From the NCBI GenBank assembly GCA_021819135.1, contig JAKASE010000001.1:75375-139374 (forward strand): 64,000 bases of DNA, given 5' to 3'. Source of the stretch: Thermoplasmata archaeon (GTDB lineage: Archaea; Thermoplasmatota; Thermoplasmata; Lutacidiplasmatales; UBA184). The notes beneath the pieces are model-generated. The model had not been told where the DNA came from, ran no database searches, and was given only the letters and a program-made list of their open reading frames with translations. Below are positions 40,441-60,091 of the stretch, one piece after another. The translations under genes and the position numbers were made by a program. Numbering within the stretch: the first letter of the stretch is position 1; every line of letters begins with the position of its first letter.

Positions 40441-40865
40441 CAGGCTCGGACTCGTTACGAGAGTCCACGGCGGGATTCTATGGACGCGTTGGGAGCGAAG
40501 TCCCCCTATCGGAAGCGTCGCGTGACCGCCGTCTTCAACCCTGGAGTCGTGAACGAAAGGCTGAGACCCGGCTCGGCATGAATCCGAAGCTCCGGCTCGC
40601 TTCTGGCGATTTCTGGTTCTCCGCAGCTAAGTTTAAGATGCACCCGTTGACTGCGCGTTTGGATGACAGGGTCGCGTCGATTTCTCGCCATCGAGCGCGC
40701 GTTCCTGTCGTGTGTGACCGATTGGGCGACCCCGGGTTCGCCATCGGCCGCGGTCCACCGGAGCAGGCATGGACCCAAACGAGAACCCGGAGCCTTCGGA
40801 CAGCCGAGGTAGCGACCGTCCACGTGTGTGCTTCCGCCCACCGGGCGGCCCCGTGGGTAGATTGA
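40437..40865 (+). CDS. hypothetical protein (island cargo)
   Basis: ATGA overlap with upstream ORF; 142 aa. Confidence 0.25.
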   Translation: MTGSDSLRESTAGFYGRVGSEVPLSEASRDRRLQPWSRERKAETRLGMNPKLRLASGDFWFSAAKFKMHPLTARLDDRVASISRHRARVPVVCDRLGDPGFAIGRGPPEQAWTQTRTRSLRTAEVATVHVCASAHRAAPWVD

Positions 40866-41005
40866 ATGACGACCGGAGACTGGGAGGGGCAGATCGTTCT
40901 TGCCCTTCCAGTACGTCGAGCTCCTCCGTCCAGATCCGGGCTACGAGGCCGTCGGTAGGCGGTGTGGGGCTCCGACGGTCTCCCTCGATCGGGCGCCGCC
41001 GGCGC

Positions 41006-41251
41006 ATGCGGTGGTTTACGGTTTCGGTGTCCGTAGTTGCCGTTCTCATCCTCCTATCCTCATCGATCGGATTGATTCGCGCCGCTGGGAGCGGGGGCGC
41101 CTTCCCCGCCGGGATCGTGGGTTCCGCCACTCCGTACTATCCGTTGCTGGTCCCTCCGTCGATGTGGCCGTCACCGGACACTGCCGTGCCGTCCACGTCC
41201 GGGGTCAACCTGTCACTTCCGCAACTAGTGGGCGTTTCCAGAAGTTCCTAG
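41006..41251 (+). CDS. possible small secreted/membrane peptide (81 aa)
   Basis: MRWFTVSVSVVAVLILLSSSIGLIRA signal-like N-terminus. Confidence 0.25.
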   Translation: MRWFTVSVSVVAVLILLSSSIGLIRAAGSGGAFPAGIVGSATPYYPLLVPPSMWPSPDTAVPSTSGVNLSLPQLVGVSRSS

Positions 41252-41268
41252 CCTAGCACGCGGGCCTG

Positions 41269-42032
41269 CTACCACCCGTCTACTTCGGGATCGTAGTCAT
41301 CGAGGCGCTCGAACCCTTTCACTCCGAGGATCGACAGCGCCGAGGGGGAGTCGAGGACCATTTGCCGTATGGTTCCGAGCAGATCCTTCTTCTCCCGTTT
41401 CTCGAGATCCTTCAGCACCTTGTCCAGATCCACGAACGACCGTGGCTTACGCTTGTACGTCTCGAGGAGCGCCGCCACATGCTTGCAGGGGTAGTATTCG
41501 GACGGACACGTGCACTGGGCCTCCTTCTTCCGTCCGGCCGAGGCTTGGGTCCGGTACACGCCGGAGTTCCCTTGGATTCGGCAGACCAAGGTCGACCCGA
41601 CCTTCATCCGTTCCCGCATCCGTGGGGAGTCCACATACTCGTCCACCCGGTCCTCCCACGAACGCCCCATTGCCGGGCTCACTGGAGGTAGGCGAGGCCC
41701 GCGCAATCGAAGCACTCCTCCGGAGTGCCTCCCATCGACCCGCTCGGAAGATACGAGCGCTCGTAGCGCTCCGTGCTGTACTTGTAGAACGCGAAACCCC
41801 ACACGTCCGGCCGCCCGGCATACTCGAGCCGACAGAGGTGGGTCGGAACACTCTCCACCTTCCCCGGCGAATCCTCGTCATAGCAGTAGGCATCCACCTG
41901 GGCGTACCGCCCTCGGAAGCGAACCTCCACCCGAGCGCATCGCTCCCTCCATCGCTGCTGGGCGCGAGCCCGAAGCCGCCCGGTCAACTCCCGCCGCAGC
42001 TTCGGAGGGATTCCCTCCGTCGACCTCTTCAT
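41269..42032 (-). pseudogene. SWIM zinc-finger protein, apparently frameshifted (frames 42032->41679 and 41802->41269)
   Basis: CTCPSEYYPCKHVAALL SWIM signature (CxCx(n)CxH) in downstream frame; upstream frame starts ATG 42032 overlapping IS630 transposase stop (ATGA). Confidence 0.5.
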
Positions 42033-43171
42033 CCCTTCTCCTCGCGATGCAGGGGTTCCGGGTTCTTGGACTCTTCCTCGGACCATCGCTTCAGGTCCGC
42101 TCGAAGGTCCTCCCGCGTGTACGTCCATCGGAAGGGCCGTGGATGTCGATTCCATCGAGCGAGGAACCCACGGATCCTCGCCTCCGCTTCCTCCCGATTC
42201 CGGAAATCTCTCGGTGTCAGTGCCTTCTTCGTCAGGATCGCCAAGAACAGCTCCTCCTGGTCGACCCAGCTCGCGTGCACCGGGGTGTGCACGGCCTGCG
42301 CTTGGGGGAACGCCCCTTTCAGCCATGGCCCGAAGCTCTTCGGATGATGGGCGCTCCCGTTGTCGATCACCCAGAACACCCGAGAGGCCGTGGCGTAGGG
42401 TTCCTTCTCCATCACCTCAGTGACGAAGGCACGAAACGACTCCGCGGTGTTTCGAGGGGGGAGCCCCCCGAACACATCCCCGTGTCGAACGTCGAGCGCT
42501 CCCTGGAAGCAGAGGGTTCCCTTGCGCGTGTATTCGAACTCCACCTTGCCGCGTTCCTTCGGCCGAGGGGCGCGGGTGGCCACCTTCCGCTGAAGGATCT
42601 GGACCCCGGTCTTCTCATCGGCACAGATCACTTGGTCCTGGGGCCCCAACGGCCGACCGTTCCACTGGCCTTCGTAGAGATCGAGGATCGGACCGGCTCT
42701 TTCGAGGAAGTCCGGAGCCCTCTTGTGGATCCACGTGCGATAGAACCACGGTCGAATCCCATCCTGGTGAAGGACCCGCCACAGGGTGGTCCGGCTGGGA
42801 AGCGGCCGGAGCCGTTCCTTCCGAAGGACGGAATGGATCTCGGAGAGGGAGAAGCGGCTGAGCGGTAGGCCCCGCTCGGCGGGCAACTCGCAGGCGATCG
42901 CCTTGAGGGTCGCCAAGGTGCGGGCCGGGAACTGACGAGGTCGGCCGGAGCGAGGTCGGTCCGCCAAGGCCGCCAGTCGGTCACGGACGAAGCGCTTCCG
43001 CCAAGTCTTGACGGTCTGGAGAGCGCAGCCCAGAGTTCGGGCGATCTCGTGGTTCGAAGTGCCCTCCGCGGCCAGAAGGGCGATCCGCGCACGCAAGACC
43101 TCGCGAAACGGAGCAGAGGTCCGACGAAGGCTGGCCTCGAGCCTTGAGCGCTCGCTTTCCGAGAGCACCAC
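42029..43171 (-). CDS. IS630 family (Tc1/mariner-like) DDE transposase
   Basis: 380 aa; N-terminal HTH, DDE region (ICADEKTG..., VIDNGSAHH...) typical of IS630; GTG start. Confidence 0.85.
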   Translation of the reverse strand: MVLSESERSRLEASLRRTSAPFREVLRARIALLAAEGTSNHEIARTLGCALQTVKTWRKRFVRDRLAALADRPRSGRPRQFPARTLATLKAIACELPAERGLPLSRFSLSEIHSVLRKERLRPLPSRTTLWRVLHQDGIRPWFYRTWIHKRAPDFLERAGPILDLYEGQWNGRPLGPQDQVICADEKTGVQILQRKVATRAPRPKERGKVEFEYTRKGTLCFQGALDVRHGDVFGGLPPRNTAESFRAFVTEVMEKEPYATASRVFWVIDNGSAHHPKSFGPWLKGAFPQAQAVHTPVHASWVDQEELFLAILTKKALTPRDFRNREEAEARIRGFLARWNRHPRPFRWTYTREDLRADLKRWSEEESKNPEPLHREEKG

Positions 43172-43440
43172 GGCGTAGCTGGGTGCGAGCAGTAGCCCAC
43201 CTCGATAGAGGTAGGCAACACTAGGCTAAGGACTTATGGAATGTTCCACTAGCGGCGACCGGGATCGGAACCGATCCGACCTTCTTCCTCGTCTACGCGG
43301 CGACCTACCTCGTCCAGGGGTCGAACGGCACCCGGTCGCTCCAGACGGACTTTGACATCCGGGTCGGGGTCTACGCGTCTTGGCTGGCCACCGACATTGC
43401 CACCAATACGACCTCGCGGACACTGCCGCTCAATTGGTCC

Positions 43441-45171
43441 GTGGCTCATACCATCTACACGGCATCCGGGAACTGTTCTTCGACGGCCATCGCCGCCGCT
43501 CCGGACGGTTCGTCGGTTGTGGCCGGGATCACGTGCGGCTCCACGTCCCGGGTGTTTCGTTCCACCCCGACGAATGCACTGACGTCATGGACTGCCCTTG
43601 GGACCCTTTCAGGAACCGGGCTCGAGCTCACCATCGACCCGGCGGGTTACGCTGCGGCCACGACGATCTCGGGTGGAGACGCCGTGCAGAGCGTGTTGCC
43701 GTTCCCGACCGGGCCCGTGACGTCGACCACCCTGGGACCGGCGAGCGCGGCCCGCCCGGTGATCCTTCGTACCGCCGAAGGAGCGGTTCAGGGAGCGGTC
43801 ACCGTTGACCCCGGAAGCTGGACCACGTTCTGGGCCACAACGGAGACCGGGCTCTCACCTATCGCCTACGGGATCTTCCGATTGCCTCAGAGCAACGCGT
43901 CCCCGGTGTTCAACGCGATCGGGTCGACCCAGCTCAGTGAACCCGGGGGGTATGCCAACCAGCTGTCGGTGGCGGTCGTGGGCGACACTCTCGTCGTCCT
44001 GACCACGGTCCAGGAGAACGGGACCATGGAAGCCGCGATCTCGGCCTCGGGAACCCAGGGGGAGACGTGGAACAGCCCGATCATCCTCCCGCTGACGATG
44101 GGCTCGATCATCGACCCCGAGATCTACGGCGGTCAAGATGGGAACATCTATGCCACCTGGTTGGCGAGCGACGGCGGCAATCTCTCCGCGATCGAGCAAG
44201 CCGTCCTCGCGCCGGACGGTCGGCTGCTCTCCGACCCGACCGTCATCCCCGGAGGGATTGGCCCGTGGCCGGTGAGTAACGTCGAAGTTGTGGGTTCAGC
44301 CCTCGATTCGTTCGAGCGTCCCCTGCTGGTGTGGGCAACGCCGGTCGGATCGAACGGGAACGCCCTGATCGAGACGGGCGCGTTCCCGTCTCCATCGAAC
44401 ATCGTCGGTCTCGAGCGAGACGCCCTGTGGAATCTCACCAGCGCGGACCTCGTCGGCTCGGGGAACGTGGCGACCTATGTGAGCGGCATGTCCGGGATCC
44501 TCACGAGCATCGCGAGCGATGCCGGGCGAGCAGGTTCGGGAGGATACTTCAACCTGGCCCGGAATCTCACCGCAGACCTATACCAGAACGACAGTCTCTC
44601 TTCCCTGGGCTACTTCGGCGAGCAGTCCTCGGGCAGCGGGAGTGGCAAGAAGTACACTCTCGCCGGAGGGGCGGACCTGACTCCCGCGGTAGAGACGGGT
44701 CCGGGATACTCCCCACCCGAGACGTATGGTGCCCTCGTTCCTTCGGTCGGCTTCGGTTCCGCCGCCACGTACTTGAGTGTCGAGACGGATTGGTTGCTGG
44801 CCTCCGAAGGTGTGGTCCCGGTGGCGGCTTCGAATCCGCTGAACAACGTCAGTCTGCCCCAAAGCCTGTCTTCATTGCCCGGATACGGGACGCCCGCCTA
44901 TCCGCACAACACGGTGGATGGGAAGCTCAGCTCCGCCACGGTCACCCCGAGTGTCATCAATCCGACCACGGCCGAGCTCGGGATCACCGGGTCCTTCCCC
45001 ACCTATCAGTACCAAACGACCACCGGCACGACGACCTGCGGGAGCACCCACTACCCCCTCCGAACCGATTCCTACACCGACACGCCATCGACCTTCTCGG
45101 ACACGGCCTTCGTCAACAACATGGTCACCGCGCTGGGAACCATTAGCAACCTGAACGGCGCAGCCTCATAG
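43441..45171 (+). CDS. Ser/Thr/Gly-rich sequon-dense surface protein (576 aa) with Asp-box-like motif, no signal peptide in-frame
   Basis: SGTQGETWNS Asp-box-like; many N-x-S/T; GTG start right after IS630; upstream in-frame sequence contains hydrophobic FFLVYAATYLV but no start codon. Confidence 0.5.
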   Translation: MAHTIYTASGNCSSTAIAAAPDGSSVVAGITCGSTSRVFRSTPTNALTSWTALGTLSGTGLELTIDPAGYAAATTISGGDAVQSVLPFPTGPVTSTTLGPASAARPVILRTAEGAVQGAVTVDPGSWTTFWATTETGLSPIAYGIFRLPQSNASPVFNAIGSTQLSEPGGYANQLSVAVVGDTLVVLTTVQENGTMEAAISASGTQGETWNSPIILPLTMGSIIDPEIYGGQDGNIYATWLASDGGNLSAIEQAVLAPDGRLLSDPTVIPGGIGPWPVSNVEVVGSALDSFERPLLVWATPVGSNGNALIETGAFPSPSNIVGLERDALWNLTSADLVGSGNVATYVSGMSGILTSIASDAGRAGSGGYFNLARNLTADLYQNDSLSSLGYFGEQSSGSGSGKKYTLAGGADLTPAVETGPGYSPPETYGALVPSVGFGSAATYLSVETDWLLASEGVVPVAASNPLNNVSLPQSLSSLPGYGTPAYPHNTVDGKLSSATVTPSVINPTTAELGITGSFPTYQYQTTTGTTTCGSTHYPLRTDSYTDTPSTFSDTAFVNNMVTALGTISNLNGAAS

Positions 45172-45174
45172 TAC

Positions 45175-46997
45175 CTACATCTGGCTGACCGCCGCCTTGC
45201 TCGCGCTCTCCAACCGGCTTACCGGCGAGGGAAACCTCGCCGGTAGCCTCCCCTGGACCGATCCGGCTAAATAGGTGTGGGTCTTACGTATGACCCACAT
45301 GGCGGTCAAGCACAACCGCGGCTCGGGCCGCTGTTACCTCTCCCAGTGGCGCACCTACCGCCGAGACGGCAAAGTCGTCAGCGAGTACGTCCGCTACCTC
45401 GGCCTCTGCCCCGAGCACAATGCCGGTCCCTCCACCTCCGTCCTCGACCGCACGGTCCACGGCTCTTCCTATCGGGCGGGAGCGGTCCGACTGCTCTGGA
45501 GCCTCGCCGACGATTTGCAGTTCCGGGCCTCCATCGACCGGATCTGCGGCCGAGATTCCGACCCTTCCGAGCCCTCTCCGGGCCAAACCCTGACGGCCTG
45601 GGCCATCAACCGGGTCCTCGATCCCGCCAGCGCCACCCGCCTCGAACTGTGGACGCCCACCACCGACCTACCTCTCCTCGCTGGGGTCTCGGCGGACGCC
45701 TGGGCGAAGGACACCTTCTTGCGCGCCCTCGACCGGATCTGCTACGACGACCCGGCGCTCGCCCAGGTGGTCGACCACACCGCCGAACTCGAGGAGACGC
45801 TGAGCGCCGGGTGGCGGGAGCGCCACCCGCTCCTGAAGGGGACGAAGGAGGTGATGGCCTACGACCTGACGAACGTGCTGTTCTTCGGCGTCACCTGCCC
45901 GATCGCCACTCCGGGTAGGAACCCCGATCACCAGAATCGGCTCCAAGTGAACGTCGGCGCCGTGGTGAGCCGTCACGACCGGATGCTCTGGCGGCACTTC
46001 GTCTACCGGGGGAACCGGCACGGCGTGGGAACGATGCGGAACCTCTTGGTGGAGCTCCAGCGGGCCCAAGTGGCCCCCGGATTGCTCATCGTGGACCGAG
46101 GCCTCGTGGGCCGGGAGATCGTCGAGGAGGTTCGGGCGGTCGGCTGGCAGCTGCTTGGGGGGCTCTCGCGGAGTTCGAAGGAGGTTCGGGAGATCCTCGA
46201 CACGGCGAAGCTGCGAGAGAACCCCTCGACGTTCGTTCAGAAGACCCGAACGGGGGCGATCTACGCCGCGAAGGTCCGGGCGAGGCTCTGGAAGTCGGAG
46301 CAGGAGGTGGTGCTCTACACGAACGCGGAGCACGCGATGGACGATCGGGTGGAACGGGACCGTGCGCTCTCGATGATCGGGAAGGTGCTCGACACGCTCT
46401 CGGAGAAGGGGAAGGACTGGTCGGAAGGGAAGCTCCACGAGGCGATCGAGGGCGTGCTCGGGGAATCGGCGGAGTTCGTGAACGTCCGGGTGCGTCGGGG
46501 CGGGGCCACGCCGAGAGTGGCGTGGTCCTTTCGGGATCGGGCGGTGAAGGCGGCGGCCCGGCGGGACGGGAAGTACGTGCTGCTCTGCACGGACCCGGGG
46601 CTGTCGGCGGCGGAGGTGGTGGAGCAGTATCTGGGGAAGGACTTCGTGGAGAAGGCGTTCCGGACGTTCAAGTCGGGGATCGAGGTGGAGCCGGTGCGGC
46701 ACCGTCGGGAGCGGCGGGTACGGGCCTACCTGTTCGTGTGTGGGCTCGCGTATCGACTGGAGATGGCGCTTCGGTGGAAGCTCCTGGAGGGCGGTGTGAA
46801 GCCGGAGGACGTAGCGGAGTACCAGGAGCGGCTGCTGGAGGAGCTCGGACGCGTGGAACGAACCGAGGTCCGGCTGGGAGCTCAGGCCCGAACGTGGTAT
46901 CTGAATGTCACGGACCGCGTCCGGGAGGGGTTGAGGCGCCTCAAGCAGACCGGGTTGCTCCAAGAAGGGCCCGTCGCGACCGCGGTACCGGCGTAGG
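45175..46997 (+). mobile_element. IS1634-family insertion sequence with 9-bp target-site duplication TCATAGTAC
   Basis: Direct repeats at 45166-45174 and 46998-47006 flank a 1.8-kb segment carrying a single transposase gene. Confidence 0.65.
45290..46996 (+). CDS. IS1634 family (IS4 superfamily) DDE transposase
   Basis: MAVKHNRGSGRCYLSQWRTYRRDGKVVSEYVRYLG N-terminus and C-terminal YLGKDFVEKAFRTFKSGIEV (Y-x2-R-x3-E-x6-K) signature. Confidence 0.85.
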   Translation: MTHMAVKHNRGSGRCYLSQWRTYRRDGKVVSEYVRYLGLCPEHNAGPSTSVLDRTVHGSSYRAGAVRLLWSLADDLQFRASIDRICGRDSDPSEPSPGQTLTAWAINRVLDPASATRLELWTPTTDLPLLAGVSADAWAKDTFLRALDRICYDDPALAQVVDHTAELEETLSAGWRERHPLLKGTKEVMAYDLTNVLFFGVTCPIATPGRNPDHQNRLQVNVGAVVSRHDRMLWRHFVYRGNRHGVGTMRNLLVELQRAQVAPGLLIVDRGLVGREIVEEVRAVGWQLLGGLSRSSKEVREILDTAKLRENPSTFVQKTRTGAIYAAKVRARLWKSEQEVVLYTNAEHAMDDRVERDRALSMIGKVLDTLSEKGKDWSEGKLHEAIEGVLGESAEFVNVRVRRGGATPRVAWSFRDRAVKAAARRDGKYVLLCTDPGLSAAEVVEQYLGKDFVEKAFRTFKSGIEVEPVRHRRERRVRAYLFVCGLAYRLEMALRWKLLEGGVKPEDVAEYQERLLEELGRVERTEVRLGAQARTWYLNVTDRVREGLRRLKQTGLLQEGPVATAVPA

Positions 46998-47008
46998 TCA
47001 TAGTACGA

Positions 47009-50000
47009 GTGCGCTGTTCAGGTAGCAAGTCGTCTTTCATTCCCAACCTCTATCTCCAGAACCTCTCCGCCGACCGGCTGTTCACCTGGTACGTTACCCT
47101 GAAGGCGACCTACGACGAGACCGATTACTGGATCATCCACAACGCGTGCACGACCCGGGAGGGTGTGACAAACCTGGGGAACAACGTCGTCCAGGGTCCC
47201 GCGTCGGTCTCGATGAGCGGGGGATCCGAGGACTCGACGACCTTGACCACTTCGGCCCAGGTGATCGAGAAGGGTACCAGCGATGTCGAGCTTCAGTGGA
47301 ATAACTCCATGATGGCGGATGGCCAAGGGGTCATCAGCCCGTCCATGGGCGGTAGTGGCCTCTCCGGGTTCGTCTACCAGGCGTCCTGGAACGACACTCA
47401 CACGTTCAGCAGTGGTGTGGCCTACGAAGCCGCCGTGAACACTTCGAGCTATCCGGGAGGTTGGAACAGCTCCTGGAAGCCGTCGATGTCCGCCGCCGAG
47501 CAGACCTCGTCACCGGTGCAGGCCACGAACTCCGTGTGTCAGTTCGTGTATCAGACCAACACGCTCAGCCTCCATGGACTCGTGGGGGTCGGAGGACCGA
47601 ACGACACCGCGACGGTGACTTGGTGGGCGAACGGCTTCGGGGTGGGCGTGCTCGAATACTCGGAGGTCGGCACGTCGTGGAGCCAGACCGTGACGTCGGT
47701 CGTAACGACCGATTCCAATGGGACTGACAAGTACACGGCGACCGTCCACGGCCTGCCCGGTACCGCGTTCTACTCCCTAACGGCCACGACGACGGTGGCC
47801 GCCGGGGGATGCCTCAGTCTCTCGAACGCGATCTCGTCCACGGCGTTCTTCGGACAAGGGTTCACGCTGACGCCGTTCGCGTACGCCTACGATTCGATCA
47901 CGCAGCAAGGTGGCGGTGAGGGGATCTACGCATACCTGTCGCCCCAGTTGTATACCCTCTACACGCAAAGCACGGTAAGTTCGACCGGAGGCTACCTGGA
48001 CTACGGACCGGCCAACGACGCGGGGCCGAACATCACCATCCCCATCTCGTCGCTATCTTCCATCACCTGTGGAGGGAACTGCTTCCTGGTGAACATCACG
48101 CCTACGAGTCCGAACCTGAACTATGTGGTCCAGGAGACGCTCAACTTCTCATGGGACGGCGGATCGTACTCCATGCACAGTGCTCCGACGACCTTCAACT
48201 ACCTCTGGGACACATCGGGGGATGGCCTGACGGATGCGGAGAAGGTCCGCGGCTGGAACGTGACCTACCAGGACCTTGCGGGCACCTACCACACCCGCCA
48301 CGTCACGGCCGAACCCAGCGCCTTTGCGACCAATGGACTCGTGGGAGACTACGTGGAGAAGGAGTTCGGGCTCGACCCGGGCACGGTCGACACGGCAGGC
48401 AGCCACATGCTCGATACATGGAACCTAACGTTCAATCTCCAGCCGGCAGGCGGGAGTCTACCTACCGGCTCGGACCTCCGAGTCTGGTACGAGAACTCGA
48501 CCTACGAGCCGTTCGCGGCAGGTCTTCAGTATTCCCACGGGCTCTATGAGACGGGCAATCCACCGGCCAGCGAGCGGAACGCGACCAACATCTCCGCCAC
48601 GGGAGGCGTCAACATCGGGGACGGGAGCCCATGGGCATCGACTGCGCTCTTCAGCTACCCCGCGCTCGAGACATTCGTCGGTCTGTCCGGTGTCCAGAAC
48701 GCGGGCTGGCTGCGGGCCGTCGAGGGGAGCTGGCAGGGGATCCCGACCCTCACGGTCGAAGGGAAGCTCTCTTGGGGGGCGGATCCCCTGGCCGCATCCA
48801 CCCCGAACGACGGGGTTTCGGACGGGGCGCGGGTCAACCCGCTCTACGATGTCGGTCTCGAGTTCCATTCCGTCTATGCGAACCTGACCGGGCTCGGGTC
48901 GGGCAACGATGGCAATGGCTACGCGGTCGAGATGGTCGAGGGCTACACCGATGATGGCGGGAACTGGCGATACATCAACAACTACTCCACGCCAGCGGTA
49001 TACGGCAACAGCAGCTCCCACCATGGAGACGTCACCGACTACACCACCACGTTGCCGGTGGGTCAAACCCAGCCGACCCAGACGATCTCGCTCGAGGTGG
49101 CGGAGAACATCACTCCGGGCCAGGGGCCCCAGCCGGCCTATATCAACGGGAGCGGTACCGGAATCTCCGAAACGTACGACCTCGTCCGAGGAGGCAATTT
49201 AGTCGTGAATGTCGTCGGCTGGTCCGGGCACGGCGGCTACTCCACGCTCTACGGGGTGTTCACGGAGGTGCCGATGGGAACCAAGGCGCCGACGTGGCTC
49301 TGGGTCCCCACGGACAACTCGACCGTCAACGGTCTCCCGATCGGCCTCCAGCGATACACCGGCGAGCAGTCGTTCGACCTCGTGGTCGTGAACGTCTCCT
49401 CCTCGGCCCTCTCCTCCGACCCGATCCCGCTCCCGTGGGGCGGGACGACACCGACCGGGATCCCGCTCTCGGCCGGCCTGAACGACTTCCTGGTCCCGCG
49501 GGAGCAGTTCCTCTACTCTCCCTTCGGCCAGGCGATCTTCCTCGGGAAGAGCACGAGCTTCAATGCCTCCCAAGCCCTGCCGTTCAACGGCTCGATCGAG
49601 TGGGGCGACATATCGGGGTTCGGCAGTCCGAACCCGATGGTCGACCTCGGCGCCTACTGGCAGAACCGGGCCATCGCCTCCGGACCGGGGAACATCACCG
49701 GGTATAACGAGACCGGTACCGCCGCGGGCACCACGGATGCCATCTCGGTGATGGTCGGTCCGTCCGCCACCACTGCCAACACCGGCGGCCTCCCCTCGAA
49801 CCCGAGCCTCTACTCGACCGTCGGCGATCCCTCGGCCCTGCAGTCCATCGTCACCCTCAACATCACCAGCCCGGACACGCTGGACCTCCTCCTCGCCGCC
49901 CTGCTCGATAACACCACGGGCGGATCCAACGCGGTGAACGGTACCCTCGAGTCCGTCACCTACCAGATCGGGTTCCTCGGACTGAACCCGACCGTACTCA

Positions 50001-51064
50001 ACGCGATCCCGAACGGGACAGAGCCGAACGACGGGCTCTACGGACAACCGAGCAGCACCTGGCCGCCGAACCCGCCGAGCAGCCTCTGGGGCTCCTTCTG
50101 GAACGCGGTCACGAGCTTTGTGGTCAACCCGCTCGGCACGGTCCTGTCGCTCGTCAACACCGTGTGGGACGCCGCTACGGCCGCGTTCACGTACCTGAAC
50201 CACCTCGCGCACGAAGCGGTCGCGATCGGGGCGGAGGTCGTGGCGCGGACCGCAGCCGCGATCGTGCAGGCGGGGAGGGAGATCGCGAACGCGTTCGAGG
50301 TGTTCTTGAACTGGCTCTACACGCTCGTCAAGGACGCACTTGCGGTGGTTATCGACCCGATACTTAACGCGGCCCAGAGTTTCGACAGCACTCTAGCGAC
50401 TCGGGCCAACGTGACTGTGAGCGACCAAGGCTCACTCGGTTACGTGACCCCCGCTGATGGGCTAACTTGGGCACGGGCATTCGACCCAGTAGCCTACCTT
50501 GGGTTTGCATTCGCAGTCGGTATCACCATCGTAATCGGGATTGTTACAGCCGTCACTCTAGGAGCAGGGTTCGTTGTCGGGGTGATCTTGTCCCTCATTC
50601 CCACGCTCGCGCAAGAGCTAATCCATGGACTGGCGACAGTGACGTCACTCACTTCGAGCGCGGTGACAACTCTCGAAGATAGCTTCTCCAACTCGGTCTC
50701 GCAGACTGACTGGGAAGCTTTGGCAGGTGCCGTATCGATCGGGGCGTCGAGCTTCGACTTCTTCTTTGCGTTGGCGACAGCGGCGATGAAGGGACTCACC
50801 AACACCATCGCAGGTACCCTCGCCCTCTCCATCATCGTTGACCTCGTCGTCTTTGTGGTGAGCATCGTGAACTGGGCGAGTCATCTCGCAGACATCGCCA
50901 TCGCCGCCCTCTTGCTGGCGGGCGCCGGAACGTATGTCGCGTTCAGAGCACTGGGTGCGAGCGCGAGCATTCCGGAATTGAAGACTTACGCCACCGTCTC
51001 CGTCATCTTGGCTGGAGTGGGACTTGCTGCTGCCGGGGCCGATGTCCATCTGGCGGAGTCGTGA
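47009..51064 (+). CDS. giant (1351 aa) N-glycosylation-sequon-rich surface protein with C-terminal multi-TM domain; no recognisable signal peptide
   Basis: >70 N-x-S/T sequons, S/T/G-rich beta-like sequence, 6-8 hydrophobic helices in last 300 aa; GTG start 12 nt after IS1634 end. Confidence 0.6.
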   Translation: MRCSGSKSSFIPNLYLQNLSADRLFTWYVTLKATYDETDYWIIHNACTTREGVTNLGNNVVQGPASVSMSGGSEDSTTLTTSAQVIEKGTSDVELQWNNSMMADGQGVISPSMGGSGLSGFVYQASWNDTHTFSSGVAYEAAVNTSSYPGGWNSSWKPSMSAAEQTSSPVQATNSVCQFVYQTNTLSLHGLVGVGGPNDTATVTWWANGFGVGVLEYSEVGTSWSQTVTSVVTTDSNGTDKYTATVHGLPGTAFYSLTATTTVAAGGCLSLSNAISSTAFFGQGFTLTPFAYAYDSITQQGGGEGIYAYLSPQLYTLYTQSTVSSTGGYLDYGPANDAGPNITIPISSLSSITCGGNCFLVNITPTSPNLNYVVQETLNFSWDGGSYSMHSAPTTFNYLWDTSGDGLTDAEKVRGWNVTYQDLAGTYHTRHVTAEPSAFATNGLVGDYVEKEFGLDPGTVDTAGSHMLDTWNLTFNLQPAGGSLPTGSDLRVWYENSTYEPFAAGLQYSHGLYETGNPPASERNATNISATGGVNIGDGSPWASTALFSYPALETFVGLSGVQNAGWLRAVEGSWQGIPTLTVEGKLSWGADPLAASTPNDGVSDGARVNPLYDVGLEFHSVYANLTGLGSGNDGNGYAVEMVEGYTDDGGNWRYINNYSTPAVYGNSSSHHGDVTDYTTTLPVGQTQPTQTISLEVAENITPGQGPQPAYINGSGTGISETYDLVRGGNLVVNVVGWSGHGGYSTLYGVFTEVPMGTKAPTWLWVPTDNSTVNGLPIGLQRYTGEQSFDLVVVNVSSSALSSDPIPLPWGGTTPTGIPLSAGLNDFLVPREQFLYSPFGQAIFLGKSTSFNASQALPFNGSIEWGDISGFGSPNPMVDLGAYWQNRAIASGPGNITGYNETGTAAGTTDAISVMVGPSATTANTGGLPSNPSLYSTVGDPSALQSIVTLNITSPDTLDLLLAALLDNTTGGSNAVNGTLESVTYQIGFLGLNPTVLNAIPNGTEPNDGLYGQPSSTWPPNPPSSLWGSFWNAVTSFVVNPLGTVLSLVNTVWDAATAAFTYLNHLAHEAVAIGAEVVARTAAAIVQAGREIANAFEVFLNWLYTLVKDALAVVIDPILNAAQSFDSTLATRANVTVSDQGSLGYVTPADGLTWARAFDPVAYLGFAFAVGITIVIGIVTAVTLGAGFVVGVILSLIPTLAQELIHGLATVTSLTSSAVTTLEDSFSNSVSQTDWEALAGAVSIGASSFDFFFALATAAMKGLTNTIAGTLALSIIVDLVVFVVSIVNWASHLADIAIAALLLAGAGTYVAFRALGASASIPELKTYATVSVILAGVGLAAAGADVHLAES

Positions 51065-51807: not shown

Positions 51808-52802
51808 CTATGGAAGACTATCGAGCGTTGTACCGATAAGTCTGAGTCCTGCCTCTCCCTCGAAATCCCGAAACTTGGGTCGCGGCCGTATTCCGGTCGT
51901 CGAGGGGTTGGCCAGTCGAATCGATCGCTTCCCGACGTTTTTTCCCGACTTGTTTCGATGCGCCCACTCGTCGAGCTTGAGTGAGGGGAGCGCCCACCAG
52001 GTTCCCGCGGCTTCCGAGTAGAACATGAAGAGGTAGTTGGGACGAGGATTGCGCAACTCGAAAGCACTGAAGAAGGCTGCATCGCGCGGGGCCACGTCCT
52101 TTGAGCGCGCCTTGACCTGCACGTCCAGATACTTTGGGTGACCGCTGGGGTCCTCCCGTCTTATCACGCAATCAATCCCCTGGTCGTCCACCAATGTCAG
52201 ATAGACGTCGAAGCCGCGCCTTAGAAGCTCGGAAATCGCGACGAACTCCTGGCGCTTGCCGAACGAACCGGAACTTCGGAAAGTCCCTCTCACTTTCGAG
52301 CTATCGTCACGGTCGTCATAAGGAGCCCTCTGGCAACACCCCACATACCACCGAATCGCTGCGTCTGGGACTGGTGCGGCGGCCCTGGAGCACGCATCGC
52401 GAAACGGGTTCGCATGGGAATGTGAGCTCTCCCTTAGCCCGTCGTCTTCTTGGTGGGGTTCCCGAGTATGTTCAACATGTAGAGCCACCACTCCGATTGT
52501 GTGTTCTCCTCGAGTCGCTTGGCGGCCCAGACTGTATCGGTCGAGTGAATCGAGTAGAAGATGTTGAATCCGTTGTCCCTCAGATTCTCGAGAGCTTTCC
52601 AGGTGTTCGCTTCCCCTCGTCCATGGGAGTAGAGCCGGTACCGCACGTCTCCGGTGTGACCCACGTAGAGGGTGTGTTTATCACCTCGTCCCCTCGAGGC
52701 CGCGATGACGTAAGCGGCGGGTCCCTCGAACGGAATCTGACTTGGCTTTAGAGGCGAGCCGTCCGAATTGTACAGGGGTGCCCAATCTGACCAACGCCCC
52801 AT
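51808..52802 (-). pseudogene. GIY-YIG nuclease domain (52802->52434) followed, with a frame change, by Hjc-like PD-(D/E)XK nuclease domain (52491->51808)
   Basis: GIY-YIG: AAYVIAA...LYVGHTGDVRYRLYSH; PD-(D/E)XK: GKRQEFVAISELLRRGFDV...DDQGIDCVIR...YLDVQVKA; 58-nt out-of-frame overlap. Confidence 0.5.
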
Positions 52803-52920
52803 GATGCCCGGGACTGCCCCTCAGTATGAAAGTCTGACTCGGACCCAAGTTCGACAAGGGTACGCGCGCCGCCACCGCCGACCGGTCGGGGTGAGGGCAC
52901 CCCCTGATTGTTATCCTATA

Positions 52921-54654
52921 CTCCGTCAGTCCAGCCCTCGAGGACCCGCGTCGAACAGTAACCCCGCCACGCCGATGGCTCCGAGGAGGGACCGCTGTTC
53001 CTTCGTCATCTCCGTCACGAGCCGGCGACGCCAGCCCGTCTTGGCGAGCTCGACCTCGTTCAGCATGATGGTGCGGAACTGGTCCAGGGCCTTCGCTCCC
53101 GTGAGCTCGTAATCGCGCATTCGGACGTGCAGTTCGACCACCCGCTCGAGGAGATAGGCGAGCACGCAGAGGAAGAGGTGGGCTTCGATCCGTCGCTCGA
53201 GGCGGTGGCGGATTGGGCGGACCTCCAGTCCGCTCTTCAGCTCCCGCCATCCCTGTTCGATGATCGAGAGCCCCATGTAGAGACGGGCGACCTCCTCGGG
53301 GGGAAGATCGGTGTCGGTGGTCAGTACCCACCAACCGGCCAGCCTCCGATCGCGTCGACGGCCTTCCTTGAGCTTCGCCGTCAATCCACGGACCGTCGCC
53401 TCGTCCCACTCGATCTCGAACAGGTCGGAGAGACCCTTTGCCGCCAGAGCGGCGTGGGCCTGTCGAAGGATCGTGTGATGGTGCCGAGGCCGCTTCGCCC
53501 AGGCACGGCGAAGCTGGTAGAGGATCGCCTCGCCCTGGGCGATCCTACGCCCGAGGTTCTCGAGCTCGGTCTTCCGTCGCTCCTCGTTCAAGAGGACGAT
53601 GAACCGTCGTCCCTCTCGGTCGATGACCTCACGGACCTGGTTCTGCTCGCTGACGGCCACTGGCGGGAGTTTCTGGGCCTGGAGGATGATCTCCTCCACG
53701 TTCCGATTGACCTCGGCGAGCACGTAGTGGAATCCGTGGGCGTGGAGGTCCGCGAGGACCTCCTCGCTCTTCATTCCCCGGTCGCCGACATAGGTCCCTT
53801 CCTTCAGTCCGAAGAGCCGGGTCAACCGGTCGACCATCCCGATGACCGTCGTGTTGTCGGTGGTGTTACCCGGATAGACCTGGAGGGTGATGGGGAGGCC
53901 CTCGGGCGTGACGACCATGCCCCAGCTGACCTGAGGCCGATCCGCTCGACGGTCTCTCGAGTAGCCGAACTGGGCGAGGGGACCTCCCTCGCCCTCGAAG
54001 TAGCTGGACGTGAGGTCGTGATAGAGCACTCCCGAGGATTGGCTCATTGGGCGCACGACCCGTTCGAACAGCTTCGGTTCGAACCGGTCCTTCGCTCGCC
54101 AGAAGGCATCCATCGCTCGGTAGAACAGGTTGTCGTGCAACCGCTCGGGGTCGAGGTGGAGGAAGAATGGAACGGCGGTGGTGGGCAACCACTCGAGGAG
54201 ACCATACTTCGAGGTCGGATCGTCGAGGCGGTTCAGCACGATCGCCTCGAGGAGCGCCGCGACCCGTCCCTTGTGCGGCACTCCATTAAGCGTTTCGAGG
54301 GCGAGTTGGTGGAGTCCAAGCTTCCGCCAGAGGAAGTGACCGATGGCCACTTTGCCGTAGCTCCACGACTGACGGACACTGAGCTCCGAGAGATCGGCGA
54401 TGTCCCGCGGTCGAGGAGCCAGGGGGAACCGCGGGTCGGTGGCCAGCCATCGACGGAGGTTCTCGATCTGCTCTGGAGTAACCCGACCGAAGTTGACCAG
54501 GACCTCGGTCCGGACCTTGGTTCCTTCCCGGATCCCTCGGGCCAACTGAGCGTAGGTCTGCCCCCGAGGACGAACGACCTTGATGTAGAGGCCTCGGGGC
54601 ACGCAGGGTAGAGAACTGACGAATAGATAGAAGTATCCAACGTATTCGATATGC
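52921..54654 (-). mobile_element. second IS1634-family element (different from the first); possible 11-bp imperfect direct repeat GTTATCCTA(T/C)A
   Basis: Repeat copies at 52910-52920 and 54655-54665; AT-rich 54620-54680 terminus; no clear terminal IRs found. Confidence 0.4.
52926..54602 (-). CDS. IS1634 family DDE transposase (558 aa)
   Basis: C-terminal LYMGLSIIEQGWRELKSGLEVRPIRH signature; family-typical length; GTG start. Confidence 0.85.
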   Translation of the reverse strand: MPRGLYIKVVRPRGQTYAQLARGIREGTKVRTEVLVNFGRVTPEQIENLRRWLATDPRFPLAPRPRDIADLSELSVRQSWSYGKVAIGHFLWRKLGLHQLALETLNGVPHKGRVAALLEAIVLNRLDDPTSKYGLLEWLPTTAVPFFLHLDPERLHDNLFYRAMDAFWRAKDRFEPKLFERVVRPMSQSSGVLYHDLTSSYFEGEGGPLAQFGYSRDRRADRPQVSWGMVVTPEGLPITLQVYPGNTTDNTTVIGMVDRLTRLFGLKEGTYVGDRGMKSEEVLADLHAHGFHYVLAEVNRNVEEIILQAQKLPPVAVSEQNQVREVIDREGRRFIVLLNEERRKTELENLGRRIAQGEAILYQLRRAWAKRPRHHHTILRQAHAALAAKGLSDLFEIEWDEATVRGLTAKLKEGRRRDRRLAGWWVLTTDTDLPPEEVARLYMGLSIIEQGWRELKSGLEVRPIRHRLERRIEAHLFLCVLAYLLERVVELHVRMRDYELTGAKALDQFRTIMLNEVELAKTGWRRRLVTEMTKEQRSLLGAIGVAGLLFDAGPRGLD

Positions 54655-54768
54655 GTTATCCTACAAAATCCAAGTCCTCAGTCGAGAACCCGATCAGTTT
54701 GTCGAAGGTGGGCTCGGAGCGATCGCCCTCGACTTGACCCTGCCTTTCGCGGATACTGTGGGTTGCTC

Positions 54769-57295: not shown

Positions 57296-57449
57296 CACGG
57301 ACTCCCCACCAGGGGGCGTGGGCCCACCCGGATTCCGTGCGAGAACGGCCCCAGACCGTGCGTCGGGGCCGCTTTCGGGGCAGTGGATGGGCACCTACTA
57401 CCGCGATACAGTCCCACTTGGGTGGGGAATGGGTCAGGCGATGGTCCGG

Positions 57450-57809
57450 TCATGCCGTCGACCCGGGGTCGACCCCGGCCCCTTCCCCCTCGCGCGCATG
57501 TAGTGCTCGCGCGCCGGAAGCGTCAAGCGTCAAGCGCTCGGCGGTTTGGAGCCTCTTTCGGATGGATGCGATCAGGTTGGTCGTCACCCCGCGCTTGGCC
57601 TGGATCTGCCTGTAGGTCAGGCCTGCGAGCACGTCGGATTCGACCGCCTCTTGAACGGCGAGCTCCGCGGCGTCCGTCTCGGTCCGAAGCTCTCGAAGCC
57701 GCTCCCGGGCCGGTTTCCCGCGGGCCAAATACGCGAGCGTAGCCTTTGCCACGGCCTCGACGTCCCCCGCAAACTCCGGTCCCGTGAATTGCGCTTCCAT
57801 GTCCTGCAC
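57450..57809 (-). CDS. small HTH protein (sigma-70 region-4-like / LuxR-type helix-turn-helix)
   Basis: LAGLTYRQIQAKRGVTTNLIASIRKRLQ resembles LT.REIA..LG.S..TV; GTG start 57809 or ATG 57800. Confidence 0.5.
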   Translation of the reverse strand: MQDMEAQFTGPEFAGDVEAVAKATLAYLARGKPARERLRELRTETDAAELAVQEAVESDVLAGLTYRQIQAKRGVTTNLIASIRKRLQTAERLTLDASGARALHAREGEGAGVDPGSTA

Positions 57810-57917
57810 GTCGACCTCGATCTTGGACCCCGAAGTCCGAGCGTGAGGTACGGTAGGTCGGTCTCGGGAAGGGGGCCCAGGGCCCCGCGGCGATTGCCTT
57901 TTGGAGCCATCAGGTCT

Positions 57918-59600
57918 GAGTCTCCGACGGGGGAGTGATCCGCGTCTCCTCAGGCGCGCGGGAGGGTACCGCCCGGAGTTGCTCGTTGCTGGTAGCGACG
58001 AGCGAGGAGCCTCCCCTCGGATCGCAATCTGCTTCTTCTCCGACGGGGGAGGTACCGCCCTGAGGAACGAACAGCCGGCAGCGCCGGTTCACGCGACTCT
58101 GGACGTAAGATGATGTGCCGTTACGAAGCCAGACACGTTCCCGTGCGCGCGGAGCTCGCGTCCCAATGGCGGTGGCGTGAGCGTGTACGCCGATTCCTTC
58201 GCGCTCATGCTCGCGCCGTTCACGGACCCCGAACCCTAGCTGTGTCGCGCACGTGACGACTGGGGGAACCACGGTTACCGGACACCCGGACACTGGGTCT
58301 CTTCCGGTCGAGCGACCTCTCCTTGGGTGCGCCTTCGGGGCCGGGATCTCACCCTGCACCATGCACCCTTACACCGGGTCCCTTTCCCCCGAGCGAGCTC
58401 TCCGCGCTTGCGCGTTCGAGCCGGCACATCTTTCGGGATGCTGTCGGATCGATAGACGCTACCCGTTACTTGCTGCTGGCGCGCGCGTACCACACACACG
58501 CGAGGGAGGAACGGGTAGCTCGTCCGGACGAGCGGGACGAGAAGGGCGAGACGAGTCATTCCCTCGCGAGCACTTGCTCACACCGAGCACCGCTTGAGGT
58601 GTCGGCTCAGGTGGTCGAGGGGGAGAACGCTCCCTCGACCGTGGGGCACGGACACGGTCTGAACCCGACGGGGACCCTTGTCAGTTGACGGTTGAGGGTT
58701 CCGGCGCGCACGAACCACGCGCGGGTGAGGGGTACACGGTGGGCACTCGTCCGGGCGAGCCGGTGGGGACGCATGAGCGTCCCTTTGGAGGGGAGCGGGC
58801 CGATCGCGAATCTTGCCCCTTGCCCTGGGTCGGCTTCCTCCGAGCGAGCTCTCCACGCGACGCGCGTTCCGAGTTGACGTCCGCCGGACGCCAGGAGGAG
58901 GCGCGACGTTCGCAGTCACCGCAAGCGCGGGGAGGAGGGAGCGAACCATGCCCCCGCAAGCCCCTCGGAGCCCATGGATCGATGGTCAAAGTTCAACGTC
59001 GAGCGCGCGAGCACTACGCGCACGGGAGAAGAAGACCCGGGCGAGCCGGACGAGGACGAGTCACTCGGCCGGACGGGCAGCGAGTCTGATGCTGGCGTCC
59101 ACAAGGTCACAAGGGGGTCTCCATCCCCCGAGCGAGCTCTCCGCGCGACGCGAGTCCGGAGCGCCCTCGTCGGCCTCTTGGTTCGATGGGTGCCGCACGT
59201 CGGGAGGCGGCCCAATACGAGCGAGTACCCCGACTACGCGAGGAAGGCTCCTCCGAAAGACGTGAGAACATCCCTTGAGGACGAGTGGTTCCCAATTCCC
59301 ACATCCCGAGCCCCGGCGCGCGAGCACCACGCGCGGGGAAGGAGAAGGCGGATGGCACCGGGTCGGACGGGTTACTCGTCCGGACGAGTCGGCCGCTCGG
59401 ACGGGCTCACCGATCCCGCGCATCGTTTGACGTGGCGGGAGAGGTTGTCCCGGCGGACCAGGGTCCTGCATCCCCGGGGGCAGAGGATGCGATCCGAGCC
59501 GGACCAGTTCCCCAAGTGCTTGACGTTTGACGCTTCCGGAGCGTGCGAACTACGCGCGGGTGAGGGAGTAGGGGGGTTGACCGTTGACGGTTCCGGTATT
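57918..59600. repeat. GC-rich non-coding repeat cluster: 3 copies of CCGAGCGAGCTCTCC(G/A)CGCG..CGCG.GTTCGAG, 2 copies of ~50-nt TTGACG(G/T)TTGA(G/C)G(G/C)TTCCGG..GCG(C/T)GCGAAC(C/T)ACGCGCGGGTGAGG, several ACGCGCGGG/ACGCGCACGGG variants, and perfect 14-16-nt palindromes CTCGTCCGGACGAG
   Basis: Motif A at 58386-58420, 58837-58873, 59125-59160 (+ inverted partial 58143-58160); motif B at 58685-58733 and 59520-59570; palindromes 58518-58533 and 59384-59399; direct repeats TCTCCGACGGGGGAG at 57921-57935 and 58037-58051. Confidence 0.6.
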
Positions 59601-60091
59601 CGTTGCGACTTAGAGACCGACGTGCCGGAACCATCCTCGAAGTGGTGGCCGGTTCCCGGTTCCCCGGGCGGTACCTCCCCGCGCGCGGGGGACGAGACCG
59701 GGGTGGTATCGCTCCCGGACGAGCCGGACGAGTGGGACGAGCGGGACGAGCGCGGTTCGACGGGTGGCACGTTCGGCTCCTCGTGCGGATAGAGTTCGAG
59801 TGGGCCGGACCTTGGACTTGGACCCTCCGGCTCCGTGAACGCCTCCCCGCCCGGGACTTCGAGATAGACCGGACCGACGGACGACACGTGCCCCGGACTC
59901 TCTCGGTGGGTCAGGATGACCTCGGACCACAGAGGACCCCCGGTTTCCCAACCGGGATCGCGACGATGATCCTGGCCACAAAGGGCACATCGGGAGGCGG
60001 GAGCTCGGCCGATCACCTGGTCTCGGCAGTTGGAACAGACGAGTGGATCGCTGCCGCGGACACGCGGTCCGTCGTGGGTACAGGCCGTCAC
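59372..60091 (-). CDS. possible zinc-finger protein: N-terminal zinc ribbon (CSNC...CALCG), S/P-rich low-complexity middle, C-terminal C2HC finger (CPRGC...H...C)
   Basis: 239-aa ORF with ATG; mixed codon usage; 3' half overlaps repeat region so may be partly spurious. Confidence 0.3.
   Translation of the reverse strand: MTACTHDGPRVRGSDPLVCSNCRDQVIGRAPASRCALCGQDHRRDPGWETGGPLWSEVILTHRESPGHVSSVGPVYLEVPGGEAFTEPEGPSPRSGPLELYPHEEPNVPPVEPRSSRSSHSSGSSGSDTTPVSSPARGEVPPGEPGTGHHFEDGSGTSVSKSQRIPEPSTVNPPTPSPARSSHAPEASNVKHLGNWSGSDRILCPRGCRTLVRRDNLSRHVKRCAGSVSPSERPTRPDE

Follow-up and report, generated by a model that had tools for sequence, protein, structure and literature searches.

An IS1634-family insertion sequence within what is very probably a single giant gene for a predicted secreted protein in a Thermoplasmata archaeon

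The IS1634 family of insertion sequences (IS) is an emerging family that was split from IS4 (De Palmenaer, Siguier & Mahillon 2008); its members are 1500-2000 bp long, have ends beginning with C, generate AT-rich target-site duplications (TSDs) of 5-6 bp, lack a complete YREK motif and are common in Euryarchaeota (PMC2266710). The two founding members, which share this transposase family, IS1634 from Mycoplasma mycoides and IS1549 from Mycobacterium smegmatis, make long and variable duplications of 8-514 bp (PMC2266710). The IS4 family proper (IS10, IS50 and IS231) encodes a related DDE transposase, and a 9-bp duplication would be typical there. Here we describe an IS1634-family element in a 64,000-nt stretch of DNA from a Thermoplasmata archaeon (contig JAKASE010000001.1; hereafter, the window), located between two open reading frames (ORFs) of 576 and 1351 codons that had been considered two separate surface-protein genes. 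Comparison with related copies of the element and with homologous proteins indicates that the two ORFs are very probably parts of one giant gene that has been hit twice by mobile elements.

Termini and target duplication of the element

The element spans positions 45150-47022 of the window (1873 bp, plus strand), with ends set by an inverted repeat search and by homology among related copies. We fetched the DNA around 13 related copies and eight more from GTDB genomes, including five in one metagenome-assembled genome (MAG) with contigs of 0.2-1 Mb, and aligned the flanks of 18 copies that reside in differing genomic contexts and encode transposases 64-91% identical. The ends and the duplication could be read directly from these comparisons. 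The copies share a conserved terminal inverted repeat, CCTGAAyrGCGC ... GCGCyrTTCAGG, with CCTGA...TCAGG outermost, and every copy with such ends is 1869-1876 bp long. In the window, the left inverted repeat (IR-L, CCTGAACGGCGCA, 45150-45162) and the right one (IR-R, TGCGCTGTTCAGG, 47010-47022) are complementary at 12 of 13 positions, and an inner module consists of CCTAC (45174-45178) and GTAGG (46993-46997). The repeat search flagged the IR-L/IR-R pair as a 24-nt inverted repeat around two copies of a direct 9-mer, TCATAGTAC, which are indeed present at 45166-45174 and 46998-47006, as the initial annotation reported. That annotation took them for a 9-bp target duplication bounding the IS; however, the homology among the 18 copies extends 16 nt past each 9-mer on both sides, such that the left 9-mer lies inside the element 16 nt from its left end and the right one ends 16 nt before its right end. 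The true termini are thus 45150 and 47022, not 45175 and 46997, and a different position of the IS ends is one of the outcomes that the initial annotation had itself named as refuting its reading.

Immediately outside CCTGA...TCAGG, in-silico excision and the flanks of the relatives identify the hexamer TAGCAA at 45144-45149 and again at 47023-47028, and this 6-bp repeat is the actual TSD. Matching 6-nt flanks were likewise found in L005/L016 (TCACTA on both sides), L011 (TCTTGA) and three copies of the long-contig MAG, namely L018 (TCTTAA), L020 (TCAAGA) and L021 (TCTAGA), so that the duplication is fixed at 6 bp in all six informative copies. No repeats were found in the relatives at the boundaries corresponding to the 9-mers. 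Two further copies from the long-contig MAG, L017 and L019 (CAVOMG01, contigs 1 and 2), have reciprocally swapped flanks, TCAAGA|TCGAGA and TCGAGA|TCAAGA, which we interpret as a trace left when two IS copies recombined homologously, that is, of a genome rearrangement, or possibly of an assembly swap. All 19 of the six-nt flanks that were read (the window and L003-L021) fit the pattern TNNNNA, suggesting a weak target preference.

The transposase ORF (45290-46996, plus strand; 568 aa from ATG 45290, with GTG 45275 as an alternative start) scores 192.9 bits with the NCBIfam model NF033559 (IS1634), well above the cut-off of 100 (E = 1.1e-56; the match spans model positions 36-479 out of 483), in agreement with the family originally assigned to it. 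The Pfam DDE_Tnp_1 match is borderline and the IS4 models reach only 17.1 bits against a cut-off of 115, which places the protein outside the IS4 family proper. Catalytic residues assigned by inspection of the translation and of pairwise alignments, rather than from a structure, are D192, D269 and Y447-(2)-K450-(3)-E454-(6)-K461, with K in place of R in the YREK motif and a spacer of 185 residues between the second D and the E. A protein search with the transposase retrieved 258 relatives, the closest of which (64-91% identity) come mostly from Thermoplasmata MAGs and are named IS1634 family transposase; the start common to these relatives is probably ATG 45299. Look-ups for identical transposases gave only the one locus, and the window contains no second copy of this element.

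Thus, the element shares with the described IS1634 family the model match, a length within the 1500-2000 bp range, ends beginning with C, an AT-rich 6-bp TSD (in a genome of about 63% GC), an incomplete YREK motif without the arginine, a long spacer between the second D and the E, and a host of the euryarchaeal type. It differs from the family description in the TNNNNA flanks and, in this copy, in the direct repeat of 9 bp that lies 16 nt inward of either end, and it represents an undescribed, unnamed lineage from uncultured Thermoplasmata. Unlike the variable duplications of IS1634 and IS1549, those of this lineage have one fixed length, and, in contrast to the IS4 family proper, there is no complete YREK motif and the TSD is 6 bp rather than about 9-12 bp. 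The signs of transposition activity are indirect only, namely, the intact ORF and TSD, the near-perfect inverted repeats and, in one related genome, several copies that each have a different TSD. Because the TSD is intact, the inverted repeats are nearly perfect and the transposase is full-length, the insertion in the window was apparently fairly recent.

A stem-loop at 45275-45300 (GTGTGGGTCTT acgt ATGACCCACAT) spans the transposase start codons and is kept in the relatives; 4 of its 11 pairs show compensatory changes among eight lineages. The structure probably serves the IS in translational control. If it acts like comparable structures in other insertion sequences, it would limit translation from read-through transcripts, a role that would be relevant here because the element has the same orientation as the interrupted gene.

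A single giant gene interrupted twice

Deleting positions 45150-47028, that is, the IS and one copy of TAGCAA, fuses ORF 43441-45171 in frame with ORF 47009-51064 (...VTALGTIS-K-SSFIPNLYLQNLSADR...); the empty site reconstructed in silico reads GGGAACCATTAGCAAGTCGTCTTTCATTCC under the 6-bp model and GCAGCCTCATAGTACGAGTGCGC under the 9-bp model. The TAG in the left 9-mer (45169-45171) does close ORF 43441-45171, as originally stated. However, this stop codon comprises positions 20-22 of the IS and is present at that place in most of the related copies, and the GTG (47009) from which the 1351-aa ORF is called lies inside IR-R. The spacing of about 5 nt between this stop and the GTG, previously cited for the pre-insertion sequence, does result when the sequence separating the two 9-mers is removed, but both codons belong to the IS. 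Similarly, the transposase ORF and ORF 47009-51064 are in the same frame and are separated by a single TAG (46994-46996); this is a real arrangement, but one to be expected by coincidence in 1 of 3 cases, and a functional role for it is unsupported.

The upstream ORF is not intact at its 5' end either, having been cut there by a second IS, an IS630-family element at 41228-43249 (2022 bp, minus strand) with a TA target duplication at 41226-41227 and 43250-43251. Excising this element with one TA extends the frame back to ATG 40769, with ORF 40769-41227 joining position 43252 onward in frame. Deletion of 41228-43251 in addition to the IS1634-family element yields 2130 codons without a stop, or 2051 aa when counted from ATG 41006 (MRWF). 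The gene can accordingly be described as three plus-strand fragments. Fragment A (41006-41227) likely starts with ATG 41006 (MRWFTVSVSVVAVLILL..., a signal or anchor segment), with ATG 40769 as an upstream alternative, and extends 3' only as far as the IS630-family element that interrupts it; fragment B (43252-45149), the frame of which is open from 43225 with GTG 43441 as the first start codon, corresponds to the 576-aa protein minus its last seven residues, which are IS-encoded; and fragment C (47029-51064) corresponds to the 1351-aa ORF without its IS-borne start and encodes a C-terminal cluster of hydrophobic segments. The restored protein contains an N-terminal hydrophobic segment (aa 3-28, in fragment A), a cluster of hydrophobic segments at aa 1858-2011, which gives it a C-terminal membrane region, and 43 N-x-S/T sequons, and is predicted to be secreted, membrane-anchored and sequon-rich.

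A search with the restored protein identified five homologs, P0121-P0125. P0121 (1944 aa) is 46% identical over 95% of the query and was called as one gene on the contig that encodes it, P0122 comprises 1249 aa, and P0123-P0125, of 2300-2600 aa, contain IPT/TIG domains; no Pfam or NCBIfam domains were detected in the gene fragments or in the closest homologs, the IPT/TIG domains being confined to the more distant ones. In a multiple alignment, all five homologs run unbroken through both joins (for example, GTISKSSFIPNLYLQNLSAD versus TLKSSSWIPNIYLQNLSAD): the residues across the IS1634 site are TLTASSWVPVIYLQNLSADSRVSW in P0121 and TLKSSSWIPNIYLQNLSADSRVSW in P0122, and those across the IS630 site are TVSLPELGSTGIGTNPLYFLVYAS in P0122. 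The restoration of the frame and the continuity of the homologs are both direct observations, and since the homologs are continuous through both joins, the upstream and downstream ORFs constitute, with a very high degree of probability, one gene rather than two. The view that an intact IS resides in a locus encoding a large secreted or surface-type protein stands, but the two-gene layout does not, and the insertion does not fall precisely between genes. Placing the ends of the element 16 nt too far in on each side is what made an intragenic insertion look precisely intergenic.

The following course of events is very probable. The 1873-bp element transposed into the coding sequence of a single gene for a secreted, membrane-anchored giant protein of about 2050 aa in a Thermoplasmata-type archaeon, by a standard DDE-transposase reaction in which the two strands were cut 6 bp apart at a TNNNNA site, duplicating TAGCAA. 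The upstream fragment now continues for seven codons within the left end of the IS, up to the IS-borne TAG, and the downstream fragment is called from the IS-borne GTG in the right inverted repeat. The IS630-family element, with its TA duplication, also hit the same gene, about 630 codons upstream, and the gene is presumably inactivated. All things considered, instead of an operon with two surface-protein genes, the locus almost certainly holds one gene that has been broken twice, and the IS1634-family insertion in it is an ordinary one.

The 9-mer pair and alternative explanations

Several observations weigh against this interpretation. The homologs that serve for the excision test are only 30-46% identical to the restored protein, and the excision was performed in silico only. 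The comparison with an empty site, by which the initial annotation proposed to check the insertion, could be carried out in part: excision at the 6-bp TSD restores the frame, but no empty-site DNA of the same species was found, as a wobble-tolerant pattern had no match in JGI metagenome contigs and an exact 27-mer of the right flank had none among either the JGI metagenomes or the GTDB genomes. Given that the occupied allele is likewise absent from both collections, this negative result says nothing about the insertion. Some short metagenome contigs with related copies have unmatched flanks, most simply explained by assembler joins across the repeated element, although this is not proven. Finally, the symmetric direct 9-mer is uncommon by chance and lacks an explanation: when a stretch of the same size is placed at random in the window, its first 140 nt and last 26 nt have a direct 9-mer in common in 2.6% of cases, and one at a symmetric offset in 0.1%.

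It is this rarity, together with the fact that the 9-mers, the TAG and the GTG are all there in the sequence, that speaks for an IS limited to 45175-46997 which, with a 9-bp duplication of TCATAGTAC, would have landed between the stop of the 576-aa ORF and the GTG of the 1351-aa ORF; the empty site would then have been one TCATAGTAC flanked by GCAGCC and GAGTGCGC. We nevertheless consider such an event highly improbable. The shared sequence of the 18 copies runs beyond both 9-mers, the TAG and the GTG fall within sequence that is common to copies inserted elsewhere, the homologous proteins continue through the site, and the family makes 5-6-bp duplications (PMC2266710). Moreover, the relatives have no repeat at the 9-mer positions and instead have 6-bp repeats outside CCTGA...TCAGG. 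When the first 140 nt of the element are compared with its last 26 nt in eight other, related IS lineages, the direct repeats found are at most 4-6 nt long; since the 9-mer is absent from all eight, it cannot be a target duplication. It is unique to the copy in the window and is presumably fortuitous or idiosyncratic.

A smaller IS could also be reconciled with the shared outer arms if CCTGAACGGCGCA...TGCGCTGTTCAGG were a host palindrome, such as a REP-like hairpin or a translational-coupling structure, the loop of which it targets, so that all copies would share it. Before the relatives were compared, the two arms did look like a 13-bp stem around the 9-mer. However, the window contains no solo copy of the motif, with only the two IS ends matching exactly; the two arms are present in every copy, and their distance from the transposase gene is constant; the 6-bp duplications lie outside the arms; and excision at the outer boundary, not at the inner one, restores both the frame and the match to the homologs. 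The probability that the arms belong to the host thus appears minimal. A hairpin, translational coupling or a -1 frameshift between the two ORFs was considered as well and rejected, given that the arms are IS termini in the relatives and that there is no slippery heptamer. The mismatched flanks on several short contigs of related copies demonstrate that assemblers do join across the IS, and a metagenome assembler might accordingly have misplaced the repeated element into the gene. In the window, however, both copies of the TSD are intact, and the two halves of the gene are in frame with each other. Furthermore, an exact-protein look-up showed that the locus is identical in a 101-kb NCBI MAG contig (GCA_027377435.1, DAIFDS010000079.1) and a 190-kb contig of an ENA assembly (ERZ27237336), the identity extending over 13.7 kb and 9 kb; the neighborhood recurs in three further contigs, with the proviso that these assemblies may share reads. 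We therefore regard an artefact as very unlikely.

A second IS1634-family element is located about 1.8 kb downstream of the giant gene (52844-54712, minus strand, 1869 bp). Its transposase (52926-54602, minus strand) is only 27% identical to that of the first element, and its TSD (52838-52843 and 54713-54718) reads TCCGAG on the minus strand. A repeat search was uninformative with respect to its terminal inverted repeats, and its ends were derived solely from the alignment with three related lineages. This element has a direct 9-mer of its own, TAGGATAAC, at 54654-54662 and 52909-52917, flanking the transposase gene at distances of about 50 nt and 66 nt from the ends. The repeat occupies the same positions in all four lineages compared (the window, L030, L031 and L033), and its two copies change together (TAGGATAAC/TAGGATAAC, TGTAGGACAAT/TGTAGGACAAT and GTAGTACAACA/GTAGTACAACA), which suggests a subterminal direct repeat that is functional or evolves in concert. 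A broader conjecture, which we consider rather doubtful, is that the IS1634-family elements of these Thermoplasmata carry a short direct subterminal repeat near both ends, the copies of which evolve in concert, TCATAGTAC being a fresh instance in the first element. If this were true, the repeat would be a functional site (for binding of the transposase or a regulator, or with promoter-like elements on the transposase strand), or else would result from an end-to-end copying step that is undescribed for the family.

Genomic neighborhood and implications for annotation

The IS630-family element upstream is assigned to the IS630/Tc1-mariner superfamily on the basis of its transposase (42029-43171, minus strand; NF033545, 170.4 bits against a cut-off of 100, with helix-turn-helix and DDE_3 domains), the TA duplication and imperfect 29-nt terminal inverted repeats at 41228-41256 and 43221-43249. 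Typical IS630 members are compact elements of about 1.1-1.4 kb with a single ORF for the transposase. The element in the window differs from these in its length of 2022 bp and in two extra minus-strand ORFs within the repeats, one of 117 aa (41679-42032) and one with a SWIM zinc finger (41269-41670), which makes it unusually large for its family.

Between the giant gene and the second IS1634-family element, two small ORFs (51808-52802, minus strand) show weak, sub-threshold matches to DUF4365 and the GIY-YIG nuclease domain. Farther downstream, imperfect repeats of 40-60 nt, some direct and some inverted, are clustered at 57400-59800 (families D1, D4, D9 and D11; pairs I1 and I5).

Nothing at this locus challenges the current understanding of transposition. 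Rather, it provides a worked example of how a short repeat beside a transposase gene can mimic a target duplication. The exact ends, the 6-bp TNNNNA target and the start-codon hairpin described here help to annotate these Thermoplasmata MAGs. With regard to the host, the called proteins of 495/576 aa and 1351 aa should not be treated as two surface proteins, whether in counts or in modelling, the stop of the one and the start of the other being IS sequence.

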